Assembly: GCA_018714485.1 (NCBI GenBank)
Contig: DVNJ01000032.1
Span: forward strand, 4,135 to 68,134
Length of the DNA stretch: 64,000 nucleotides
Origin: Candidatus Caccalectryoclostridium excrementigallinarum
GTDB taxonomy: Bacteria > Bacillota > Clostridia > Christensenellales > UBA3700
Reading direction: 5' to 3'
How positions within the stretch are numbered: the first letter of the stretch is position 1; every line of letters begins with the position of its first letter. Positions 37,775 through 62,829 of the stretch are shown here, piece by piece. The position numbers and the translations under genes are program-made. Under the pieces are notes generated by a model. It was given only the letters and a program-made list of their open reading frames with translations. It had not been told where the DNA came from and searched no databases.

Positions 37775-38090
37775 GTCTTTCTCCGCTGCGCCTTAGCGCA
37801 TATAATGAAAAAGCGATATGCTCTGCATACCGCCTGTTGTATCGTGATCGCGCACGGGCGCATTTTCCCACGGATACGAAGTCAGAGTCTATATAGCAAA
37901 TACTTACTTTTACTACTCTTATTGTTACAAGCGGCGGCACCGAAGTACCGACTCATAATATAAGGATCGGGAAGTCCCGATACAATAAGGCAGCTTGCGC
38001 TGCTCATCGGCAGTGGACCCGGCTGTCCGTATGGCCTTGACCCGAAGGTGGTCCGTAGTTATTTGCGTGGATACTCTTTTCATATCCGGG
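37775..38090 (-). promoter_or_regulatory. long structured 5' leader of the polyamine operon (unclassified candidate riboswitch/attenuator)
   Basis: About 315 nt between the promoter and the speD ATG. Two c(UUCG)g hairpins, a c(GCAA)g hairpin, ATCGGG-ACTT-CCCGAT, an 8-bp closing helix CUUAUUGU/ACAAUAAG (37916-37987), and an internal terminator. Confidence 0.5.
37804..37832 (-). terminator. intrinsic terminator inside the speD leader (attenuator)
   Basis: Minus strand reads GCGGUAUGC-AGA-GCAUAUCGC (9 bp) followed by UUUUU, about 30 nt upstream of the SD/ATG of speD. Confidence 0.6.
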
Positions 38091-43344: not shown

Positions 43345-43956
43345 CTACTTTATTATGTGGCAATTAAGCGTGTTTTTACGCATTTTTTCCGCCCCTGCCA
43401 GCGGTTTTTTCCTCTTAAAGCGCGTGAGTTTCGCGGGCGCGATGCGCCTTAAAAGAGCGCAGAGCGGGGGGAAGAGAAAGGTGAAGGCGACGGCGTTGCA
43501 AATTATCTGCGTGAGGTAAAACGCCCCGCCGCGGACATAGAGGACGGCGAACCTGTGCCAAAAGTTTTCGTGAAAGCCGGTGAAAAGCCCCGTGTCGATG
43601 AGCGAGGAGAGCACGCCGAAAAAGGCGGTCATCGTCAGGGCGCAGAGCAGGGGGATAAGGCGGCTTTTTATCTTTGCCTTTCCCAAAAGCGCAAACAGCA
43701 GCGTGAAGAGCGGCCAATAGATAAAATAGAGCACGACCCAGCTCCCCGCGCCCCAGATGAGGACCTCGACGGCGCAGAATATCAGCGAGGAGAGCACGCC
43801 CGCAAGCCCGAACACATAGCCGTAAACGCCGAGCAAAAGCGAGACCACCTCCACGTTGGGGATCGCCGCGAGCGCGGCTTTGCCCGCCGTGAGAGTGGCG
43901 GCGCAGACGGCGATATATGCCGCTTGCAGGGCGGTGAACTTCGCGCGCGCCCTCAT
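43345..43956 (-). CDS. polytopic membrane protein, ECF S-component-like (putative corrinoid uptake)
   Basis: Six hydrophobic helices, translationally coupled (1-nt gap) to the DUF4430 gene under a cobalamin riboswitch. Confidence 0.55.
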   Translation of the reverse strand: MRARAKFTALQAAYIAVCAATLTAGKAALAAIPNVEVVSLLLGVYGYVFGLAGVLSSLIFCAVEVLIWGAGSWVVLYFIYWPLFTLLFALLGKAKIKSRLIPLLCALTMTAFFGVLSSLIDTGLFTGFHENFWHRFAVLYVRGGAFYLTQIICNAVAFTFLFPPLCALLRRIAPAKLTRFKRKKPLAGAEKMRKNTLNCHIIK

Positions 43957-43957
43957 C

Positions 43958-44443
43958 TCAATAGGTGACGTACGTTATCACGATGATGCAGCCGTCCTCG
44001 ATGCTCATCGCGCTCGCGCCCACGCCCGAGGGATAGCAGATTACGCTGCCTTCGTTTGAGATAAATTGGTAATTTTCCGCGCCCTCGAAGGTGGCTTTGT
44101 CCTTTTCCACGCTCGTATAAACGCTGATATATCTGCCCGCGGCGGCGTCTTCCGAAAGCCCGCCGACGGCGGTCAGATAGGCGCCGTAGCCGCTGTCTGT
44201 GGCTTGATAGTCGAGTTTTTCCTGCAAGCGCAGGCTTTGCAGAACGTTCATCAAGCCCGTCTCCTCGTTATAGGACATGGCGTTGAGGTCGACTTGAATG
44301 ACGACGGGATCGGAGTTTTGATCGTCGAGGACGAGGGTCATGGAGTCGCCCGAGACTTCGCCTTTTTGAACGCAGGCGAAAAGCGCCGCGAGCGCGAGAA
44401 GAAGGACGAGAACGATAGCCGCCGCCTTGAAAGTTTTTTTCAT
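43958..44443 (-). CDS. DUF4430-like lipoprotein (putative corrinoid-binding)
   Basis: Signal peptide plus lipobox (LFAC). C-terminal beta-rich domain resembling DUF4430. AAGGAG RBS. First gene after the B12 riboswitch. Confidence 0.65.
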   Translation of the reverse strand: MKKTFKAAAIVLVLLLALAALFACVQKGEVSGDSMTLVLDDQNSDPVVIQVDLNAMSYNEETGLMNVLQSLRLQEKLDYQATDSGYGAYLTAVGGLSEDAAAGRYISVYTSVEKDKATFEGAENYQFISNEGSVICYPSGVGASAMSIEDGCIIVITYVTY

Positions 44444-44496
44444 GAAATGCTCCTTTTGCGGGAGTGTCCCGCGTTTATTTTTTTTCGGAGCGGGGC

Positions 44497-44523
44497 AAGA
44501 AAAACCCCGAACGCAGTTCGGGG
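44497..44523 (-). terminator. expression-platform terminator of the cobalamin riboswitch
   Basis: Minus strand reads CCCCGAAC-UGC-GUUCGGGG followed by UUUUUCUU. Confidence 0.65.
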
Positions 44524-44572
44524 CGTGAGCGCGAAAAAACGCGCCTCCGCCTCCCTCCGAAGCTTGGCTTTC

Positions 44573-44745
44573 GAGCACAGGCAGGTCTCCTGACTTACGG
44601 TCTCATGCCTTGCGTCCGCCTTCCCCCGCAGGGTGGCTGAGGGCGCTCGTAACCGTTACAGTAGCGGGGGCTGTCCGCGATTCTCACGCGGTTCCCGTTT
44701 TGATGCTTTTTCCCGCGCGCGGCGGAAAACACGCAACCTTGTGCC
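44573..44745 (-). promoter_or_regulatory. cobalamin riboswitch
   Basis: Minus strand contains GGGAACCGCGUGAGAAUCGCGGACAGCCCCCGCUACUGUAA and the B12 box AGUCAGGAGACCUGCC. P1 is GCACAAGG/CCUGUGC. Confidence 0.85.
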
Positions 44746-44751
44746 GAGGAA

Positions 44752-44781
44752 ATTATATTATAGGGAAAAATGCCCTGTCAA
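44752..44781 (-). promoter_or_regulatory. sigma-A promoter (TTGACA-18-TATAAT) of the riboswitch transcript
   Basis: Minus strand reads TTGACAgggcatttttccctataaTATAAT. Confidence 0.5.
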
Positions 44782-48053: not shown

Positions 48054-48913
48054 GAGTCAACGACTATATCGTCAAGGAGATCGACCGCATCTATAACGCG
48101 CGCGAATTTGACGCGCCCGTCAAGGTGCGCGGAAACAGGCATCAGCGTAAAATTCTCTATCATCTCGAGGACGCCCGCCTTTCGCTCATGCGCGAGCGGG
48201 AGAAGATAACAAAGCAGTTCGAATATACGACCGTCTCCGTCTCGGGGATAATCCACGACATAAAAACGCCCATGGCGCTCATCGCCGGCTATGCCGAATG
48301 CCTGCAAGACGGCGTGGGCGACAAGGACTATCTCAAGCTCATTTTGGAGACGATCGAGAAACTTCAGGGGATAGTTGAATCGGTCTCGCTGCCTAAGTCG
48401 TTCAACGCCCGCGACGACATCGACGTCAAGGAGTTCATCAACGGCAGACCTTATTTTTACGCCGTGTTCGACCGCTACCGCGAAATGGTCGAGGAGCGCG
48501 GCATCAAATATCTCATCGGCAGGCTCCCTAAGATCGCCGAATGGTTTTGCCGCAACAGCGCCGCCGTCGGTATGTATATCAACAAAAAGCTCATCGACAG
48601 AGTGGTCCAGAACATCATCACCAACGACCTGCGTTACACCCCCAAGGGCGGCACGATCCGCGTGATCTTCAGTAAGAGACGGCAATTTTTCTATATCCGC
48701 GTCAAGGACGACGGCTCGGGCATCAAAAAAGCCGATCTGCCCTTTATCTTCGAACGCGGCTTTAAGTCGGGCGCAGGCGGCAGTAAGGGCTTGGGACTTT
48801 ATATGGCGCAGGATATAATCAAGCGCCACGGCGGCGCCATAAGCGTGAAGAGCAAAGAAGGGAAGGGGACGGTCTTTACGATAAAGCTGCCGATAGTACC
48901 CGTTAAACGGTAA
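48050..48913 (+). CDS. histidine kinase without recognizable TM or sensor domain
   Basis: H-box SGIIHDIKTPM about 65 aa from the N-terminus, G1 DDGSGI, G2 GLGLYM. No hydrophobic helix. ATGA overlap with the response regulator gene. Confidence 0.85.
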   Translation: MRVNDYIVKEIDRIYNAREFDAPVKVRGNRHQRKILYHLEDARLSLMREREKITKQFEYTTVSVSGIIHDIKTPMALIAGYAECLQDGVGDKDYLKLILETIEKLQGIVESVSLPKSFNARDDIDVKEFINGRPYFYAVFDRYREMVEERGIKYLIGRLPKIAEWFCRNSAAVGMYINKKLIDRVVQNIITNDLRYTPKGGTIRVIFSKRRQFFYIRVKDDGSGIKKADLPFIFERGFKSGAGGSKGLGLYMAQDIIKRHGGAISVKSKEGKGTVFTIKLPIVPVKR

Positions 48914-49345
48914 TTGCCGGACAGGCGCTATGCGAGCACGCGATAGAGCGCGCCTTTACGCACATCTTTGGACGGCGAAGACTTGATAATACGGCAAGTA
49001 TTACCTGCGTCTTCGCCGTTCAAACCTGTACGAAAATGCATCGCTCTCTCACGCACTCTTATAGACGCCTGTCCGGCATAAGTGAAAGCAGTAAGTTAAC
49101 AAGATAAAGCTTGATAATACGATAAGTACTGTCTGCGGCACCTTTGTCCAAATGCGTACGCAAATCCCTCGTCCTTCTATGCACCCTTATAGACATATGT
49201 CCGGCATAAGTGAGAGATATATATGTGAGCGAGAGGTGAACAAGAGAAAGCTCTCGATAATACGGCAAGTATTACCTGCGTCTTCGCTGTCCAAACCTGT
49301 ACGCAAATGCATCTCTCTCCCACGCACCCTTAATAGCGCCTGCCC
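48912..49345. repeat. repeat family A: one inverted fragment plus three diverged tandem units (period about 128-143 bp)
   Basis: Units start with TTGATAATACGGCAAGTATTACCTGCG at 48983, 49111 and 49254. A fourth related copy is at 50243. GCCGGACAGGCG (48916) is inverted relative to CGCCTGTCCGGC (49066). Confidence 0.8.
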
Positions 49346-49589
49346 GGGCAGCGTGACGCTGCACCCCGATACGCTTCGTATTCACAAAAAGCAATGGCAA
49401 AGCATAGCTCTTTGCACAAATATTGTAAATGGATAAGAGAACATATCTTGCGTATAAAAGTGAAATGTTTGCTCATACAGCCGCAAAGCGGCGCTTCGCA
49501 AACGTTATGGCTGCCTGCGGCGCATTTACACAACGCTTTGCTTGCAACTTTGTTTAACTGCTTTTCGCACGACGCCACAAATCTCTGCA

Positions 49590-49995
49590 ACTCTTGATCT
49601 TCCTTCCTCCTCCCTCTCTCTATTTCTCTCATATTTTAATTACTTTCACTTCTCTCATCTTCTTGAATAACTCTCTCTTATATAATTACGTTTAGCCATA
49701 TTTTGGCTACAACACATTGAGAGACTTTTGCGGTTTTATTTCAACAGATATAACCGTGTGACAAATTAAGTGCAATAAAGCGAAGCAAAAGCGTTTTTGC
49801 GAGCGGTACCTCTAAAATGCGCCGTGCACATTTTCCGAACGAGTGCGACTTCTTCACCTTCCTTCCTCCTCCCTCTTCTCTTTTTCTCTCATTTCTTACT
49901 TTCTTTCACTTCTCTCATCTTCTTCAATAACTCTCACTTATATAATTACGTTTTAGCCACTTTTCGGCTATAAGATAAAGAGAGGTTTGCGCTTT
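49590..49995. repeat. repeat family B, array 1 (2 units): G-free polypyrimidine tract + TATATAATTACG + palindrome GTTT(T)AGCC-N7-GGCTAYAA
   Basis: Palindrome cores at 49693 and 49954 (261 bp apart). Only one G in 49597-49689. Same orientation as array 2. Confidence 0.85.
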
Positions 49996-50099
49996 AACTT
50001 TTTCGGAAGACGAGAGTAGAGCAGTGTCCGAGATCGCCGAGCGGAAAGGCTTGTTTTGCAGGGCAGAAAGCAGGGCGAAATGTAAAATTTTCACGGCGA

Positions 50100-50580
50100 G
50101 ATCGAGCGCGTGAAACAATATGTTCCACCCTCTTCCTCTTCCCCACACCCATTCTTCTTCTCCAAGCCAAGATGGCGCCGAAAGTGAATACTATAAGTCC
50201 GCCTCGGAGCGGCTCTTTTCGCTTCTTTTGCACAGCCGTCGTTTGACAATACCGCAAGAGTATTGCCTGCGCTCCGCCCGCACAAAATCATGCGAAAATT
50301 TCTCGCTCGAGGTGCGCGCAGTTCGGCTGAGCCGAACCGAACTTATATTATTCCCGTTCGGCTCGGAAGAAGAAGTAAAAGAAGAAGTAGACGTAGAAGT
50401 TGAAGTAGATAAGGTGGAATATTTGCGGCGTGAAACATTGTGTTCCACCCTCTTCCTCTTCCCCACACCCCTTCTTCTTCTCCAAGTAGATGTAGAAGAA
50501 GAAGTAAAAGAAGAAGAAAATGTAAAAGTAGAAGTTGAAGATGAAGTAGATATGGTAAAACGCCTGCGGCGAAAAAGCAA
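50100..50580. repeat. alternating polypyrimidine and polypurine tracts with duplicated units
   Basis: GTGAAACA(A/T)T(A/G)TGTTCCACCCTCTTCCTCTTCCCCACACCC..CTTCTTCTTCTCCAAG at 50110 and 50430. GAAGAAGAAGTAAAAGAAGAAG... purine tracts at about 50362 and 50490. 7-bp stem GGTGGAA/TTCCACC. Confidence 0.8.
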
Positions 50581-50594
50581 AAGTTCGGATAAAC

Positions 50595-50624
50595 TTGAAA
50601 GTGAGCTTTTGCGTTTGATATAAT
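50595..50624 (+). promoter_or_regulatory. orphan sigma-A promoter (TTGAAA-18-TATAAT with extended TG)
   Basis: TTGAAAgtgagcttttgcgttTGaTATAAT. No plausible CDS downstream before the convergent rluA-type gene. Confidence 0.45.
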
Positions 50625-50984
50625 GTTGTTGAACGGTTCGGAAGATGCGCTGCGCGCCGCAAAGAAGGCGTGTTAGACGAGGAAAGACGGCTTTTTATCG
50701 CAGGGAGCATAACACTACACTCAAAGTGTAATAAAGCGCGGCAAAACCACGCTTTTGCCAAGCGTTACCTTGAGCGGAACGACTGTTCCGCACGAAGCGA
50801 AGCGCAGGCGGGAAGAATGAATTTTTGCGGGTAAGGCGAGCGCGAGACATTGACACTCTACCGCAAAAAGAGAGAAAACCACGCCTCAAGCAATCGATCT
50901 CGCGGCGCAGGAGAGCGAAGCCGCGACGAGATAAAATCCGTTCATAGACGGAAAGTCGATTGCGAATGGCGGGGTTGTCGCTCA

Positions 50985-51032
50985 AAAAGCGAAAAATCGA
51001 GAGGCAGAAAAAGTTTGCAACTTTTTTGCCTC
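50985..51032 (-). terminator. intrinsic terminator downstream of the pseudouridine synthase gene
   Basis: 14-bp hairpin GAGGCAAAAAAGTT-GCA-AACTTTTTCTGCCTC on the minus strand, followed by TCGATTTTTC. Confidence 0.6.
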
Positions 51033-51080
51033 TATCCTCGAGATTTTTCGCTTATCTAATCAGCGTATTTCGCCCCCCCC

Positions 51081-51782
51081 TTAAATCTTTGCGAGGTGGT
51101 AGTTGATGTCAAAAGCACTCCACGGCACCTCATCGGCGGGGGGATAGACGAGGAAGGTCATGCGTTTTTCCTCGGTGGGGTGGGGGAAGGAGATGCGGGT
51201 CGCCCAGAGCGCCAAGCCGTGCTTAAAGGTCTTAGGGTCGCCGCCGTAGCGTCTGTCGCCGAAGAGGGGGCATTTGAGCGTCGCCATTTGCACGCGGATC
51301 TGATGGCTCCTGCCCGTCCCGAGTTTCACCTTGACGAGCGCGAAGCCCTGGCATTCTTCGAGCACTTCGTAAAAAAGCTCGGCTTTCTTGGCGCCCTCGG
51401 TGAGCATGGGGACGACGGAGACGGTGTTGGTGCGCTCGTTCTTTTTGAGATAATGCACGAGTTCGCCCTTTTTCTCCTTGGGCACGCCGCAGGTCACGCA
51501 GAGATAAGTCTTTTCGAACAGCCCTTCCCTCATGCTCTCGCTCAGGCGCGCGGCGGCTTTCGACGTCTTGGCAAAGACCATGACGCCGCCCGTGGGTCTG
51601 TCGAGGCGGTGCACAAGTCCCAAGTAAGCCTCGCCCGGCTTTTCGTACTTGACCTTCAGATATTCTTTGAGCAGCGTGAGCATATCCTTGTCGCCGCTCT
51701 CGTCGCCCTGCGCGGGCACGCCGGCGGGCTTGACCGCCGCCAGCAGATGATTGTCCTCATAGACGATGTTCAATTCTTCCAA
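51081..51782 (-). CDS. RluA-family pseudouridine synthase
   Basis: HRLDRPTGG catalytic motif, about 233 aa. Confidence 0.9.
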   Translation of the reverse strand: MEELNIVYEDNHLLAAVKPAGVPAQGDESGDKDMLTLLKEYLKVKYEKPGEAYLGLVHRLDRPTGGVMVFAKTSKAAARLSESMREGLFEKTYLCVTCGVPKEKKGELVHYLKKNERTNTVSVVPMLTEGAKKAELFYEVLEECQGFALVKVKLGTGRSHQIRVQMATLKCPLFGDRRYGGDPKTFKHGLALWATRISFPHPTEEKRMTFLVYPPADEVPWSAFDINYHLAKI

Positions 51783-57210: not shown

Positions 57211-58236
57211 CTATTTTACCTGCTCTTCGAATTTATCGAAAACGGGCTTAACGCCGTCCGCGACGTCAAAATAGCCCTCGTGCGTGAGGCAGCTCAAAAG
57301 AGCTTCGCCGTCCTTCAAAAAAGCTATGTCCGCAAAGCTCACATAAGGTGCATAAGTTTCGTAAGCGTCATAGTGATACCTGTCGAATCGCTTGAAAGAC
57401 ATAAGGTATTCTTTGAGCTTTTGCGTGGGCTTGAGATAGACCCTAAGAACGTTCATGCCGTAATTTTCCGTCTCTTCCGTCCGATATGCCCCGCCCAAAA
57501 TTTCCGCGAAGCGCGCGTCGCTCTCCCCGCCGATATGAACATTTTCTTCGGCATGAAAACAGACGGTATCGCTCTCGGAAAAGAGATATTCAAGCTGAGA
57601 AGCGGAAAGTTTTTTCGCCCGTTCGTCCTCGGCGACGGCTTTATCGTAATCGTCCAAATACCCGCTCTTCACATACTCTTCCCAAATATCTATTTGATCG
57701 TAGATGCGATCCGAAGGCATCTCGTATTCGACGACGTCCGCCTCTTCTCCCGCCATCGCCTGCGCCAAATCGAAAAAGGGCATGACCTCGGGCGAAGTCC
57801 GTTCAAGATGATACAGCGTAGATTCCTGCATCAGTGCATGGTCGTTTATGAACGCGCCGTATTCACCCATGGCTTTTTGGCACGCCTCGCCGCTCTCTGC
57901 CTGCTTGAACATTTCCTGCACCTTGGCATACACTTCGCTTTGCATTTTTTTGCTCTTCTCTTGCTCGGAAAGCGCGGGATCGCTCATGATCTTTTCCGTC
58001 ATTTCCTCTTCACATTCCCCGATATGTGCGGTATAGCTCCGCCACTTTTGCATCAGGCGTTCCTGCTCTTTTTCAAAGGCGGCGCGCCTTTGTTCATACC
58101 CTTCAGACTCCAAAAGAGCCTTGATCTCCTGCAATCTCGCCAGCCTTTCCGCACCCGCCCGGCGAAATGTCTCGGCGGTATAGGGCTTTTCTCTGTCTAT
58201 TTCGTTTACCGTTGTTATAGTTATCAACTTTTCCAT
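57211..58236 (-). CDS. hypothetical acidic protein (341 aa)
   Basis: Long ORF with a GGTGAG RBS and its own promoter. No family recognised by eye. Confidence 0.7.
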   Translation of the reverse strand: MEKLITITTVNEIDREKPYTAETFRRAGAERLARLQEIKALLESEGYEQRRAAFEKEQERLMQKWRSYTAHIGECEEEMTEKIMSDPALSEQEKSKKMQSEVYAKVQEMFKQAESGEACQKAMGEYGAFINDHALMQESTLYHLERTSPEVMPFFDLAQAMAGEEADVVEYEMPSDRIYDQIDIWEEYVKSGYLDDYDKAVAEDERAKKLSASQLEYLFSESDTVCFHAEENVHIGGESDARFAEILGGAYRTEETENYGMNVLRVYLKPTQKLKEYLMSFKRFDRYHYDAYETYAPYVSFADIAFLKDGEALLSCLTHEGYFDVADGVKPVFDKFEEQVK

Positions 58237-58360: not shown

Positions 58361-58469
58361 GGCGTATCTCCATCTTTTCTCATTCCGAGAAATGCAACTT
58401 GAAATGTTGCACATTGAGAAAAGATGCCCGCTTTGCCGCCCCTCCTCCGTGGCAGCAACGCCTTACCTT

Positions 58470-60110
58470 GCGATATTTTCCCCTCTTCTTCCCTTCACAC
58501 TCTCTTCTCTTACCTTCTCTCCTCTCTCCTATCTCACTTCCACCCTCACACAACATATAGCTTATCCTTTAATTGCGCTTTAGCCACTTTTCGGCTATAA
58601 CACAAAAAGACATTTACATTCTTACTTAACTAAAATTCTTACACTTATCCCTTACCTTTTAACTGCCTCTTCATTCGATCCCCTCTTGCCCGCTCTCTCT
58701 TCCACTCTTCTTCCATTCTCTTTCTCTCTTCAACCCCTCTTCTCTTACCTTCTCTCCCCACCCTTACCCCCTCTTTTCTTTCTTTTTCTCAATAACGTCC
58801 GCTATAAATTCTGTTTTAGCCATTTTTCGGCTACAACATGTTAAGAAGCCTTGCGCTTTAATACGATAAATATAACGATATGCCAAGGATCATAAAACGG
58901 TTACGAGCAACATGCTTAACCCCTCAGCACAGCAACCTACTTGCAATTTTTTCTCTTTCGTCTTTCTCAATAACGTCCGCTATATAATTCCGTTTTAGCC
59001 ACTTTTCGGCTATAACATGTTAAGAAGCCTTGCGTTTTAATACGATAACTATAACAATACGGCAAAGATCTCAACCGACTGCAAACCATATCCGTTATCT
59101 CACACCCTGCAAACACACTATCCTTTTCCATTTACTTACCTAAATCTCTCTTCCACTCACTCTCTCTTTTCTGCTCCATTTCTTCCTTCTCTTATTGCTC
59201 ATTATATAATTGCGTTTTAGCCATTTTTCGGCTAACACATATTAAGAGCACTTGCGCTTTTTCATTTATCTGATACAGCCGTGCGACTATAAAAACCACC
59301 GCACTTCAATGCCGACACAGCCCGCCCTGCCGTAATAAAGCCGCACATCTCTCCCTCCTCTCTACTATCTCACTCTCAATCTTACACTACATACCGCTTA
59401 TCTTTTAATTACGTTTTAGCCATTTTTCGGCTATAACACAATGAGAAGCCTTTAGCTTTAATGCGACACATATAACGACATGATAAAGATCTCAACCGGC
59501 TGCAAACTAAGTTGACAACCTCGCGGCTTCGCGGCTAACCAACGCCAACCTCTCCCCTTACCTACTTCAACTCCCCCTTACCTTCCCCTTCTCTTCCTCT
59601 CCTCTTACCTTCCCCTTCACTTTACCCCCATGCCCCCTCTTCCACCCTACTCTCTCATTCCTTCACTTATTGCTCATTATATAATTACGTTTTAGCCATT
59701 TTTCGGCTATAACAAAAAGAAGACTTGCGTTTCAACACGATAACTATTAAAATGAGAGCAAAAGCGTTGTGGATAATATTCCGCCGCTCATATATCGCTC
59801 ACACGTTGTAATACTCATTAACATACACCGCCCCGCACTACACGCCGCCTTTCTATCTCGCTCTCCCCTTCACACTCTCTCCTCTCCTTCCATCTCTTAA
59901 TGCTCATAATATAATACTGTTTTAGCCACTTTTCGGCTATTGACCAAAATAGACTCACATGTTTCATCCTATCTCTCCGTTTCATTATCTTCTCTACCCC
60001 CTCAACCCTTTCCCTCTTTTGCCTTCCCTTCACTTTTCCCCGCCCCTCTCCCTCCCTCTCTACTGCTCATAATATAATACTGTTTTAGCCATATTTCGGC
60101 TATCAATTAT
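58470..60110. repeat. repeat family B, array 2 (8 units)
   Basis: Palindrome cores (TAGCC) at 58581, 58817, 58996, 59218, 59417, 59693, 59923 and 60086. Each is preceded by a G-depleted C/T tract (2 G in 59545-59688) and an AT box. No ORF of 60 aa or more is credible. Confidence 0.9.
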
Positions 60111-60159
60111 AATAAACATTGATATTAAGACTTGTTACCGTGACTGCGTAACAGTTGAG

Positions 60160-62357: not shown

Positions 62358-62627
62358 ATGCAATATTTAGTGATAGCTTTTTCCTCGCGCTCGCTCGCCA
62401 TGCAGGCGCAAAACATATTCGCCCGGCGCGGCATTCCCGCGACGCTCATCAACACGCCGCGCGAAGTCGACGGCTCGTGCGGTCTTTCCTTGCGCACGGA
62501 CTCCCGCTACCGCGACGCCGCCCTGCGCGCCGTCGAGACCACCTTACTCAAAACGAGCGTCAAGGCGATCGCGCTGATCGACTATCCGCGTTCGGGCGAA
62601 AAAAGCGTGCGCTTTCTCGCAAGATAG
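62358..62627 (+). CDS. DUF3343 domain protein (putative S/Se carrier-like)
   Basis: 89 aa, MQYLVIAFSSRSLAMQAQ..., AAAGGAG RBS. Divergent from the desulfurase gene. Confidence 0.7.
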   Translation: MQYLVIAFSSRSLAMQAQNIFARRGIPATLINTPREVDGSCGLSLRTDSRYRDAALRAVETTLLKTSVKAIALIDYPRSGEKSVRFLAR

Positions 62628-62823
62628 CGCCTTTTTGTGCACAAAAAAGACAATTATTAATACACGCCCCGCCGCGCGCCGTCGAAACCACCTTACTCAA
62701 AACGAGCGTCAAGGCGATCGCGCTGATCGACTATCCGCGATCGGGCGAAAAGAGCGTGCGCTTTCTCGCAAGATAGCGCCGCTTAGTGCAAGAAAAAGAC
62801 AATAAGTAGGCACGCTCCGCCGC
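62526..62823. repeat. tandem duplication (2 x about 149 bp) of the DUF3343 gene 3' end plus downstream spacer
   Basis: GCGCGCCGTCGA(G/A)ACCACCTTACTCAAAACGAGCGTCAAGGCGATCGCGCTGATCGACTATCCGCG... recurs at 62526 and 62675 with a few substitutions. The flanking spacer is also homologous. Confidence 0.85.
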
Positions 62824-62829
62824 GACGGC

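Follow-up and report, generated by a model that had tools for sequence, protein, structure and literature searches.

An intergenic array of direct repeats with nearly C-free purine tracts in Christensenellales, a possible source of modular non-coding RNAs

Related systems and the repeat array

Sibling sRNAs such as LhrC1-5 of Listeria and Qrr1-5 of Vibrio are about 100 nt long, each with a clear promoter and terminator, while sponge RNAs such as CsrB, RsmY and RsmZ (for CsrA) and CrcZ (for Hfq/Crc) titrate an RNA-binding protein, the CsrB-type RNAs showing GGA in hairpin loops. The repeat elements STAR (Staphylococcus aureus), BOX (pneumococcus) and REP/BIME are scattered over tens to hundreds of loci. 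Type III antitoxin arrays (ToxI, AntiQ, CptI) consist of near-identical repeats of 34–45 nt that are cut by the cognate endoribonuclease toxin (PMC8860590).

The locus described here is a gene-free array of 2–3 kb with eight units, and with 8–13 in relatives. Within the 64-kb window, by which we mean the whole stretch of DNA analysed (64,000 nucleotides), the core TTTAGCCAYWTTTCGGCTA was found in 10 copies with at most 3 mismatches, compared to 0.04 expected from dinucleotide-preserving shuffles of the window. Eight of the copies belong to the array, and the 19-nt invariant sequence of each starts at the lower coordinate given for its core in the list below. These eight units and their irregular spacing (163–276 nt between cores) had been reported in a first-pass annotation and were recovered, but the count was incomplete, as another gene-free gap contains two more units, at 49691 and 49952. 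A covariance model of the core module detected copies at these two loci only within the window. All cores are direct repeats in one orientation, and the units are heterogeneous, diverged and 150–280 nt long. Tandem Repeats Finder did not detect the array and picked up only micro-periodicity within the tracts, because the units are too diverged outside the core. The features of both loci were the following:

58385..60138, minus strand: whole array as one putative transcription unit (promoter, eight units, end module, terminator)
60106..60138, minus strand: predicted array promoter, from an alignment of five lineages
60084..60102, minus strand: core 1 (numbered in minus-strand order), TAGCCGAAATATGGCTAAA
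59962..60064, minus strand: purine tract of unit 1 (C/T tract on the plus strand)
59921..59939, minus strand: core 2
59848..59898, minus strand: purine tract of unit 2
59691..59709, minus strand: core 3
59549..59671, minus strand: purine tract of unit 3
59415..59433, minus strand: core 4, which opens the unit of family 04 (the most conserved)
59348..59406, minus strand: purine-rich part of unit 4, a predicted loop closed by a helix with G·U pairs
59291..59322, minus strand: weak stem and T5 run, a possible internal terminator, kept in 10 family-04 paralogues
59216..59234, minus strand: core 5
59118..59196, minus strand: purine tract of unit 5
58994..59012, minus strand: core 6
58947..58968, minus strand: short purine tract of unit 6
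58815..58833, minus strand: core 7
58613..58790, minus strand: purine tract of unit 7
58579..58597, minus strand: core 8, which opens the end unit
58476..58547, minus strand: purine tract of the end unit
58433..58458, minus strand: predicted end-module hairpin, UUGCUGCC / GGCGGCAA with loop ACGGAGGAGGG
58387..58411, minus strand: predicted intrinsic terminator of the array, a 7-bp stem (GUGCAAC/GUUGCAU) followed by UUUCUC
49928..49976, minus strand: second locus, unit B (core 49952–49970; purine tract 49846–49925)
49669..49715, minus strand: second locus, unit A (core 49691–49709, one base shorter)

Read on the minus strand, each unit consists of an invariant module, an A/U-rich linker, a purine tract and a variable 3′ part, which is structured in some families and ends with a short CUUCUU element. 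The invariant module (19–24 nt; UAGCC-GAAAAKU-GGCUA-AAAC) is predicted to fold into a small hairpin (about −7 kcal/mol). As first described, an AT box and a semi-conserved tail were present. The conserved 9-7-9 palindrome claimed at the same time was not: the arms are 5-7-5, the invariant part being just TAGCC-N7-GGCTA with the AAAAC behind it on the minus strand, and the three outer pairs of the claimed palindrome were disrupted, with no compensating changes, in about 30% of 48 distinct units. No covariation was detected in the core hairpin among the 48 units, and beyond the 5-bp core arms the unit ends were not found to pair through inverted repeats of at least 14 nt.

The earlier statement that the array belonged to no known class agreed with searches of Rfam, plasmids, phages and viral contigs. 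Rfam searches with the whole window at gathering thresholds and with the array at E ≤ 10 assigned no family (best permissive E = 0.72), and BLASTn searches with the array found no match among plasmids or phages. When the exact 21-nt core was searched in 185,579 GTDB species representatives and JGI metagenomes, and the 19-nt core pattern in IMG/VR, the only matches were isolated ones within unrelated genes, attributable to chance. The covariance model detected no diverged copies at other Christensenellales loci.

Like LhrC1-5 and Qrr1-5, the array has paralogous non-coding units head to tail in one intergenic region, with a conserved module beside a predicted single-stranded, low-complexity “business” region, and its copy number varies among relatives. 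In contrast to these sRNAs, its promoter and terminator signals are convincing at the array ends only. Besides, the seeds of LhrC are CU-rich, and no such seed was found on the signal-bearing strand of the array, which is predicted to be transcribed and is purine-only over tracts of up to about 130 nt; there was no sequence or Rfam relationship to either family. The proposed array RNA resembles CsrB, RsmY, RsmZ and CrcZ in having modular repeats with many short single-stranded purine-rich motifs, although its units are 5–10 times larger. A CsrA sponge of the CsrB/RsmZ type was rejected, since GGA is depleted and not enriched in the tracts, which are long unstructured runs instead of hairpin loops bearing GGA.

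Similar to ToxI, AntiQ and CptI, the locus combines a promoter, tandem RNA repeats, an intrinsic terminator and a protein gene, with a defence context and possible processing. However, a ToxIN-like type III toxin-antitoxin system was rejected, as the units are long and diverged, the downstream genes are variable and have their own promoters, and no ToxN-like protein was found. With CRISPR arrays the locus shares a short, partly palindromic direct repeat (GTT...AAC) in one orientation, an end promoter and a variable copy number. A CRISPR array was ruled out nevertheless: the repeats are irregularly spaced (154–281 nt across lineages), the intervening segments (140–260 nt) are mutually paralogous, low-complexity families and not unique spacers of 26–72 nt, the repeat flanks are also conserved, and no cas domains were found on the syntenic contigs (about 8–10 kb on each side) or among the window ORFs scanned. 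An integron or CALIN attC array was excluded as well. Whereas attC sites are 57–141 nt long with R″-L″...L′-R′ boxes, the site here is about 24 nt, and GTTATAG...CTAAAAC is in the wrong order and does not fit RYYYAAC...GTTRRRY; only the TIR unit of relatives (see below) contains an ORF, and no IntI-type integrase was found in the neighbourhood checked.

STAR, BOX and REP elements are, like the array, lineage-restricted, intergenic and modular, with small hairpins and a variable copy number, and they often break short-read assemblies. They are dispersed and much shorter, however, whereas the array is one conserved locus plus a two-unit satellite locus, is framed by promoter and terminator signals and contains purine-only tracts. 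The array was also checked on the sequence against MITEs and IS ends and did not match that class (no terminal inverted repeats or target duplications, and only two loci in 64 kb).

Transcription signals and purine tracts

The predicted array promoter directly follows the terminator of the upstream operon, with a −10 TATAAT at 60111→60106, 3 nt upstream of the first TAGCC, and a −35-like GTAACA at 60138→60133. The extended −10 TGCTATAAT (TGnTATAAT) was present in three of four relatives, and TGCTATAAC was found in L032. The minus-strand terminator that the first-pass annotation had placed between the array and the upstream genes does precede the array, and the promoter of the downstream gene lies outside it, as also claimed. 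The U-run of the array terminator is weak in the window (UUUCUC) and was not flagged by the terminator scan; in L027 it is T7 and was flagged. In L032, the terminator stem shows one compensatory G-C to A-U change and one C-G to U·G change, the latter of which would be an A·C mismatch on the plus strand. Among the units, no consistent −35/−10 pair and no convincing internal sigma-70 promoter was found: TTGAGA-N15-TATAnT and TAAYRT occur just upstream of TAGCC in some units only, and minus-strand T-runs or a TTGTTA-17-TATAAT site are retained in several unit families, others having neither.

For family 04, RNAalifold gave −25.0 kcal/mol on the minus strand compared to −12.2 kcal/mol on the plus strand, a difference that is partly trivial because folding energies always favour a G-rich strand over its complement. 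G·U pairs make up 50 of the 252 paired cells in the structure, which was itself predicted on the minus strand, and one compensatory pair was found. The stem ahead of the family-04 T5 run folds no better than shuffles (z +0.7). All genes flanking the array, and the nested TIR gene of relatives, lie on the minus strand. From these sequence signals, we infer that the array is transcribed on the minus strand.

The purine tracts are 20–130 nt per unit and almost C-free on the minus strand (40–48% A, 45–55% G, 0–3% C, 4–12% T), which on the plus strand gives C/T tracts with 41–51% C and at most 2% G over 50–180 nt. The G-poor C/T tracts had been noticed before, and counts confirmed 0–4 G in each of the eight, including the 2 G reported for 59545–59688 (144 nt). 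Within the window, such tracts were found only beside these cores. Orthologous tracts differed at 13.7% of sites compared to 13.2% elsewhere in the units, and the tract changes comprised 157 A↔G, 63 purine↔T and 7 purine↔C, statistics that are inflated by non-independent paralogues. The tracts thus diverge at the rate of their flanks yet remain C-free, suggesting selection on composition rather than on sequence; if the RNAs exist, long, purine-only, single-stranded tracts kept in this way would be an unusual design. Because a tract almost without C allows no G-C self-pairing, it would be largely single-stranded.

The commonest 6-mer in the tracts was AGAGAG (z +2.8), whereas GGA (98 observed, 136 expected; z −5.9) and GGAGG (8 observed, 29 expected; z −4.2) were depleted, all three values being inflated by the non-independence of paralogues. 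Compared with dinucleotide-preserving shuffles, GGA, GGAGG and AGGAG were 1.4- to 3.7-fold less frequent (z −4 to −6), which speaks against mimicry of Shine-Dalgarno or CsrA sites. A G-quadruplex was also ruled out as a common feature, since the motif is present in only two to three of the eight units; the only canonical one of the 64-kb window lies at 60038–60056 in the tract of unit 1.

The lineage, an uncultured one, most likely makes purine-only non-coding RNAs of an uncatalogued kind. With somewhat less than even confidence, we favour the reading that the array forms a discrete transcription unit on the minus strand, which encodes a modular non-coding RNA, or tandem sibling small RNAs, serving as a multivalent decoy. 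A minus-strand purine RNA had been among the first proposals and is best matched by the promoter, terminator and folding evidence; the GGA-dense form then suggested, a sponge for CsrA or ribosomes, does not agree with the motif depletion. The units would act as separate or processed purine-rich RNAs, and the invariant module may mark their 5′ ends or bind a protein, as conservation begins exactly at UAGCC, which is also the predicted start of the first transcript. Given what is established about rut sites, which are C-rich, G-poor and unstructured over about 70–80 nt of RNA, the C-free composition would keep a long untranslated RNA from loading Rho, and any antisense RNA to the array would be an ideal Rho substrate. 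Jointly, the units would expose (AG)-rich single-stranded RNA as a target for pyrimidine-rich RNAs or for a factor that binds purine tracts, and they would not mimic Shine-Dalgarno or CsrA sites. A candidate factor is an Hfq-type protein; Hfq of Bacillus subtilis binds (AG)3A (PMC3287200).

The array bears on which factors of Firmicutes, Hfq being one example, bind polypurine RNA, on how long untranslated RNAs evade Rho, and on whether purine/pyrimidine tracts create hotspots of recombination in which defence genes are caught. Christensenellales, which are abundant and almost unstudied gut Clostridia, would gain a new family of modular regulatory RNAs should the minus-strand RNAs exist.

Variation among relatives and alternative explanations

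In independent assemblies from a Christensenellales lineage (“Ca. Caccalectryoclostridium”-like), the array occupied the same locus, flanked by the same genes and always in one orientation. The same unit order recurred in at least 10 independent metagenome assemblies, showing that the array is not an assembly artefact. The contigs derive from the ENA samples ERZ28616147, ERZ28615955, ERZ24773352 and ERZ15235276. Copy number was 8, 11 or 12 in near-identical strains and up to 13 in relatives, differences that could partly reflect assembly collapse, given that the array is interrupted by an N gap on one scaffold. The order of seven units is the same from strain to strain, and other strains contain three or four extra units beside unit 7. 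Unit A of the second locus lies in a segment of the window that is missing from other strains. Between lineages, the unit order was shuffled and blocks were duplicated, and the neighbouring 133-aa protein was 75–100% identical among the array-bearing lineages. In one sister lineage, a restriction-modification system was found at the locus in place of the array.

In L027 and L032, a TIR-domain gene is nested between two cores (1378–1383 nt apart) and flanked by the same ~50-nt segment plus core. The array is thereby split in two, each part closed by the same end module and terminator and followed by a protein gene, first the TIR gene and then a 341-aa gene, both with their own strong promoters. 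The TIR protein showed weak ThsB-like matches in PADLOC, and no Pfam or PADLOC match was found for the 341-aa protein or for the neighbouring 133-aa and 58/66-aa proteins. A link to the TIR gene as a general rule was ruled out, since a 52% homologue adjoins a tRNA gene without an array, and so was a link to the 341-aa gene, homologues of which (49–92% identity) are present elsewhere in other contexts without arrays. Very stable hybrids of purine RNA and pyrimidine DNA would make the locus prone to recombination, and TIR-type effectors would become embedded in it. That the locus is at once a promoter-to-terminator array of C-free polypurine decoy RNAs and a recombination-prone platform embedding defence genes, and as such an undescribed RNA class, is a wider reading that we consider unlikely.

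The copy numbers, shuffled order, duplicated blocks, nested TIR gene and replacement by a restriction-modification system would also fit a cassette or recombination array acting at DNA level. The core would then be a recombinase or DNA-binding site in a plastic hotspot capturing TIR-like genes, and H-DNA or R-loops favoured by the purine/pyrimidine tracts would stimulate recombination. The core is indeed kept as sequence and not as a covarying helix, and its inverted arms with a 7-nt spacer resemble tyrosine-recombinase core sites, which have this kind of geometry. Such sites had been proposed in the first-pass annotation with 9-bp arms; the arms are just 5 bp, however, and the surroundings of the array revealed no recombinase gene. 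The reported lack of cas, transposase and integrase genes was confirmed in the neighbourhood checked, which comprised precomputed Pfam calls on syntenic contigs (about window 50.7–64 kb and beyond, reaching 8–10 kb on either side of the anchor genes) and Pfam scans of selected larger ORFs at window 38–64 kb; recombinases were likewise absent from both sets. Besides, a site-specific system would rapidly delete direct repeats, yet seven units hold their order, and every rearrangement is also explicable by unequal homologous recombination between paralogous units. This explanation, which leaves the promoter and terminator framing and the conserved non-core parts of the units unaccounted for, appears rather unlikely.

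A selfish or neutral lineage-specific minisatellite with little or no function, likened to STAR, BOX and BIME, would descend from an ancestral small RNA gene or intergenic element, be amplified by unequal crossing-over and have its core homogenised by gene conversion. It would account for the very narrow distribution (no array in the GTDB representatives, JGI metagenomes and IMG/VR, and no copies at other Christensenellales loci), for the sister lineage without the array, for the variable copy number and for the two units in a strain-specific segment. We nevertheless regard it as quite improbable: the array persists at one locus down to 75% identity of the neighbouring protein, whole units are better conserved than their flanks (family 04 is 98% identical to its copy in a lineage whose flank is 90% identical), the tracts show strong avoidance of C although they drift freely in other respects, the array is bounded by a promoter and a terminator that are both conserved, and it is not dispersed in the manner of a MITE.

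Function on the plus strand, with the AT boxes as promoters and the palindrome as an operator or 5′ hairpin, underlay two of the first proposals, CU-rich anti-Shine-Dalgarno sRNAs and rut sites. TATAAT is present 4–5 nt upstream of the core on this strand in 9 of 14 units, one promoter-like site lies at 60086–60113, and the tract composition is as expected of rut sites. However, ATTATATAAT is its own reverse complement, so that the −10 match is not strand-specific, and the AT box is not a consistent −10, family 04 having none there despite being the best conserved. Neither a −35 element nor a TG extension accompanies it, and no array-level plus-strand promoter or terminator was found across the array, although both proposals need plus-strand transcripts. 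With the array promoter, the terminator, all G·U-containing helices, the flanking genes and the nested TIR gene on the minus strand, plus-strand function is very doubtful.

Least probable of all is an RNA part of a defence or toxin module, in which the array, its terminator and the next gene (TIR, or the 341-aa gene here) would work jointly: the split arrays of L027 and L032 do follow the type III order of repeats, terminator and toxin gene (PMC8860590), the TIR protein has its ThsB-like matches, and the locus behaves as a defence island with restriction-modification or TIR genes in sister lineages, but some arrays (this window, L006 and L024) lack the TIR gene, homologues of both proteins exist without arrays, both genes carry their own promoters, the heterogeneous units of 150–280 nt differ from identical repeats of 34–45 nt, and no ToxN-, AbiQ- or CptN-like endoribonuclease was found, the 341-aa protein matching nothing in Pfam or PADLOC.

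In agreement with the first-pass annotation, the array contained no credible ORF. The best candidate (28 codons, behind GGAGGGAGAG), the sole one with a Shine-Dalgarno-like leader, loses its ATG and frame in paralogues, and no ORF was conserved. Coding on the plus-strand tracts was ruled out, as these are without start codons or Shine-Dalgarno sequences, and the purine-rich minus strand contains just two ORFs of at least 50 codons. In practice, such arrays break short-read assemblies, and gene callers put false ORFs on them.

Core copies and proposed minus-strand organization of the array

When the 64-kb window was searched for TTTAGCCAYWTTTCGGCTA (19 nt) with a tolerance of three mismatches, 10 matches were found, all 10 on the plus strand, compared to 0.04 expected from dinucleotide-preserving shuffles. 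All eight cores of the composite repeats described in the first-pass annotation were among them, and the array region matched that description. The reported depletion of G in the C/T tracts was likewise reproduced (2 G in 144 nt at 59545–59688; 0–4 G per tract across the eight), and G-poor C/T tracts were confined to these units within the window. Tandem Repeats Finder did not detect the array, the units being too dissimilar beyond the core. Since all flanking genes lie on the minus strand, the array was read on that strand, with unit 1 at the highest coordinates.

Features of the array and the additional cores
58579, 58815, 58994, 59216, 59415, 59691, 59921, 60084: starts of the eight array cores, from the pattern search
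49691 and 49952: extra cores in a second gene-free gap (48913–51081), with unit anatomy as in the array
60197–60169, minus: terminator of the upstream operon, just before the −10 element of the array
60111→60106, minus: −10 element TATAAT of the array, ending 3 nt short of the first TAGCC
58458→58433, minus: conserved end-module hairpin with ACGGAGGAGGG loop, 3′ of the last purine tract
58411→58393, minus: conserved end-module 7-bp hairpin, followed by a U-run

The −10 element reads TGCTATAAT (extended −10) in three of four aligned related lineages and TGCTATAAC in L032, one of the same-locus contigs (L numbers) from related metagenome assemblies. The U-run is weak in the window (UUUCUC) and was not flagged by the terminator scan, whereas the end-module copy preceding a TIR gene in L027 has U7 and was flagged. 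The terminator stem of L032 showed one G-C to A-U double change and one C-G to U·G change, of which the latter would fit a minus-strand RNA only. The terminator previously placed between the array and the upstream genes was seen, and the promoter of the downstream 341-aa gene was found outside the array as proposed, after the end module. No convincing internal promoters were found in the array. On sequence grounds, the array is best read as a minus-strand locus, running from promoter to terminator, that would encode either a modular purine-rich ncRNA or a series of sibling small RNAs in tandem.

Unit conservation was shown to begin precisely at TAGCC and to extend 3′ via GGCTAAAAC into the AT box, with variable bases 5′ of TAGCC. 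The palindrome is therefore 5-7-5 and not 9-7-9 as first described; the inner core is conserved, while the three outer pairs were broken in approximately 30% of 48 distinct units. Compensatory changes in the palindrome were absent among these units, so covariation speaks neither for nor against a core hairpin, which has approximately −7 kcal/mol whichever strand is read. The AT box was rejected as a consistent −10 element: ATTATATAAT is self-reverse-complementary, and AATTAAARGATAAG takes its place in the most conserved unit family.

Distribution and unit families

Searches for the exact core revealed no array in 185,579 GTDB species representatives, JGI metagenomes or IMG/VR, which gave only isolated chance matches within genes; neither plasmid nor phage records contained the array, and no Rfam family was found for it, in agreement with the earlier statement that no known class was recognised. 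Exact-protein look-ups of flanking genes brought up the same locus, that of a Christensenellales organism, in numerous independent assemblies from ENA and Logan; the array's phylogenetic range is narrow. Near-identical strains carry 8 (L005, as in the window), 11 (L024–L026) or 12 units (L004, L006 and L007), the additional units adjoining window units 7 and 8. Array position and orientation were kept in more distant lineages, with 12–13 cores at 93% identity of the neighbouring 133-aa protein and 13 cores at 75%; a restriction-modification system replaces the array in a lineage with 79% identity. With a covariance model built on the core module, the 10 copies in the window were the only matches, and 13 other loci gave none.

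The core-to-core segments were found to be a handful of paralogous families and not spacers, and family order varies between lineages by loss, block duplication and insertion. A DNA-level recombination or cassette hotspot, a reading that this variation would suit, is considered unlikely; no recombinase, transposase or Cas protein was found among the genes of the syntenic contigs or the larger window ORFs scanned at 38–64 kb, consistent with the first-pass claim that no cas or transposase gene lies by the array.

The most conserved unit type, family 04 (approximately 59234–59439), showed 98% identity between lineages with a flank just 90% identical, and conservation among its 10 paralogues extends from end to end, a T5 run included. 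As claimed before, there is no credible ORF: the 28-codon ORF of this family is not conserved, its ATG being lost and a 1-nt indel shifting the frame. RNAalifold predicted a helix closing the purine tract into a loop, with variation that on one side allows wobble pairing (GU↔AU, GC↔GU), G·U in 50 of 252 paired cells, and a consensus energy of −25.0 kcal/mol on the minus strand versus −12.2 kcal/mol on the plus strand. Support for this predicted helix on the minus strand is modest: it shows a single compensatory pair, its structure came from minus-strand folding in the first place, and the stem preceding the T5 run folds no better than shuffles. A minus-strand hairpin with a T-run is present in some unit families and absent from others.

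Purine tracts and interpretation

On the minus strand the tracts consist of 40–48% A, 45–55% G, 0–3% C and 4–12% T. Orthologous units differed at 13.7% of tract sites compared to 13.2% in the rest of the unit, and the tract changes comprised 157 A↔G, 63 purine↔T and just 7 purine↔C. By these comparisons, constraint acts on tract composition, above all on the absence of C, and not on the sequence itself. A neutral minisatellite, against which the scarcity of purine↔C changes speaks, is regarded as quite unlikely. Plus-strand CU-rich RNAs or rut sites, which would use the same tracts as C/T runs, are very unlikely beside the minus-strand orientation of the flanking genes. GGAGG (8 observed, 29 expected), AGGAG (16 and 41) and GGA (98 and 136) were rarer than in dinucleotide-preserving shuffles, which argues against the proposed Shine-Dalgarno or GGA-dense CsrA mimic; AGAGAG, GGG runs and GGTAAG were commoner. 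The sole canonical G-quadruplex motif of the window is within the array, and most units lack one.

In a minus-strand purine-rich RNA, the invariant 5′ module of each unit would be a candidate stability element, processing site or protein-binding site, and the long tract, predicted to be unable to pair with itself, may act as a decoy for a purine-tract binder or a pyrimidine-rich RNA. One example of such a binder is Hfq of Bacillus subtilis, which binds (AG)3A (PMC3287200). Avoidance of C would leave the untranslated RNA without Rho loading sites, and an antisense transcript, if made, would be ideally suited to Rho. A module resembling type III toxin-antitoxin systems (architecture described in PMC8860590) is most improbable. 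None of the described families fits: the array departs in one or more tested defining features from each of CRISPR, attC arrays, CsrB-type sponges, ToxI, MITEs and Rfam families. Conceptually, it comes nearest to sibling small-RNA clusters and to sponge RNAs built of repeated motifs; that the array is something categorically new is doubtful.

Neighbouring genes and other features of the window

A gene for a TIR (TIR_2) domain protein of 280–298 aa, with weak ThsB-like PADLOC and PDC-S66 matches, was found inside the array in L027–L029 and L032 (L027 10271–11113; L029 9662–10558; L032 11210–12106). It has its own promoter (TTGACA-17-TAGAAT). An end-module copy with terminator precedes it and further units follow, so these arrays look like two tandem arrays, both of which stop short of a protein gene. 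Another genome has a TIR homologue of 52% identity but no array, and arrays without the TIR gene also exist. Most close TIR homologues were on very short contigs, as would fit with repeats on either side of the gene. A 241-aa ORF called in L027 (8318–9043, minus) on the strand opposite to the genes, from the 3′ end of the 133-aa gene through the first array unit, is probably a false gene from a stop-poor, low-complexity tract.

A link between the 341-aa gene (57211–58236, minus) and the array was ruled out, as homologues occur elsewhere without it. The protein is acidic, without Pfam or PADLOC match. In other Christensenellales its homologues (49–92% identity) adjoin DUF5104, SUKH/SMI1 immunity-type or resolvase genes, and it is therefore probably a mobile immunity-like gene.

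Three direct repeats of approximately 135 nt (CTTGATAATACGGCAAGTATTACCTGCG...) at 48955–49330 have relatives in L027 (approximately 590–700) and L030 (approximately 640–740), upstream of a TM1266-like gene; they form a second lineage-specific intergenic repeat family and have a short AATACGATAA/AATACGGCAA element in common with the array-unit tail. At 50120–50560, two copies of a pyrimidine segment of approximately 60 nt (GTTCCACCCTCTTCCTCTTCCCCACACCC...TTCTTCTTCTCC) share a strand with (GAAGTA)n-type purine runs, making long pyrimidine/purine hairpins possible, with sub-threshold miRNA-like Rfam matches; a 167-codon ORF called there is probably spurious. Within 50595–51040 (plus), a strong promoter-like site (TTGAAA-18-TATAAT with TG extension) is followed by approximately 400 nt free of ORFs and a terminator near 51000–51040; this region, without Rfam match, is a possible unannotated RNA. 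Homology to L004/L005, otherwise 99.4–99.9% identical, ends at 50731, beyond which these contigs carry genes for a T5orf172/ResIII protein and an Eco57I-type methylase and the window a two-component system and two array units; 50731 is thus a strain-specific island boundary.

Unit 2 contains a perfect DnaA-box TGTGGATAA (TTATCCACA on the opposite strand) at 59768–59776, retained in paralogous units of relatives. A segment of approximately 150 nt at approximately 62515–62824 is tandemly duplicated (89% identity) and varies between strains. Ordinary Rfam matches were a SpF59/ldcC small RNA (38007–38054, minus) and a cobalamin riboswitch (44563–44757, minus), the latter immediately upstream of two minus-strand ORFs (43345–44578) without Pfam matches.
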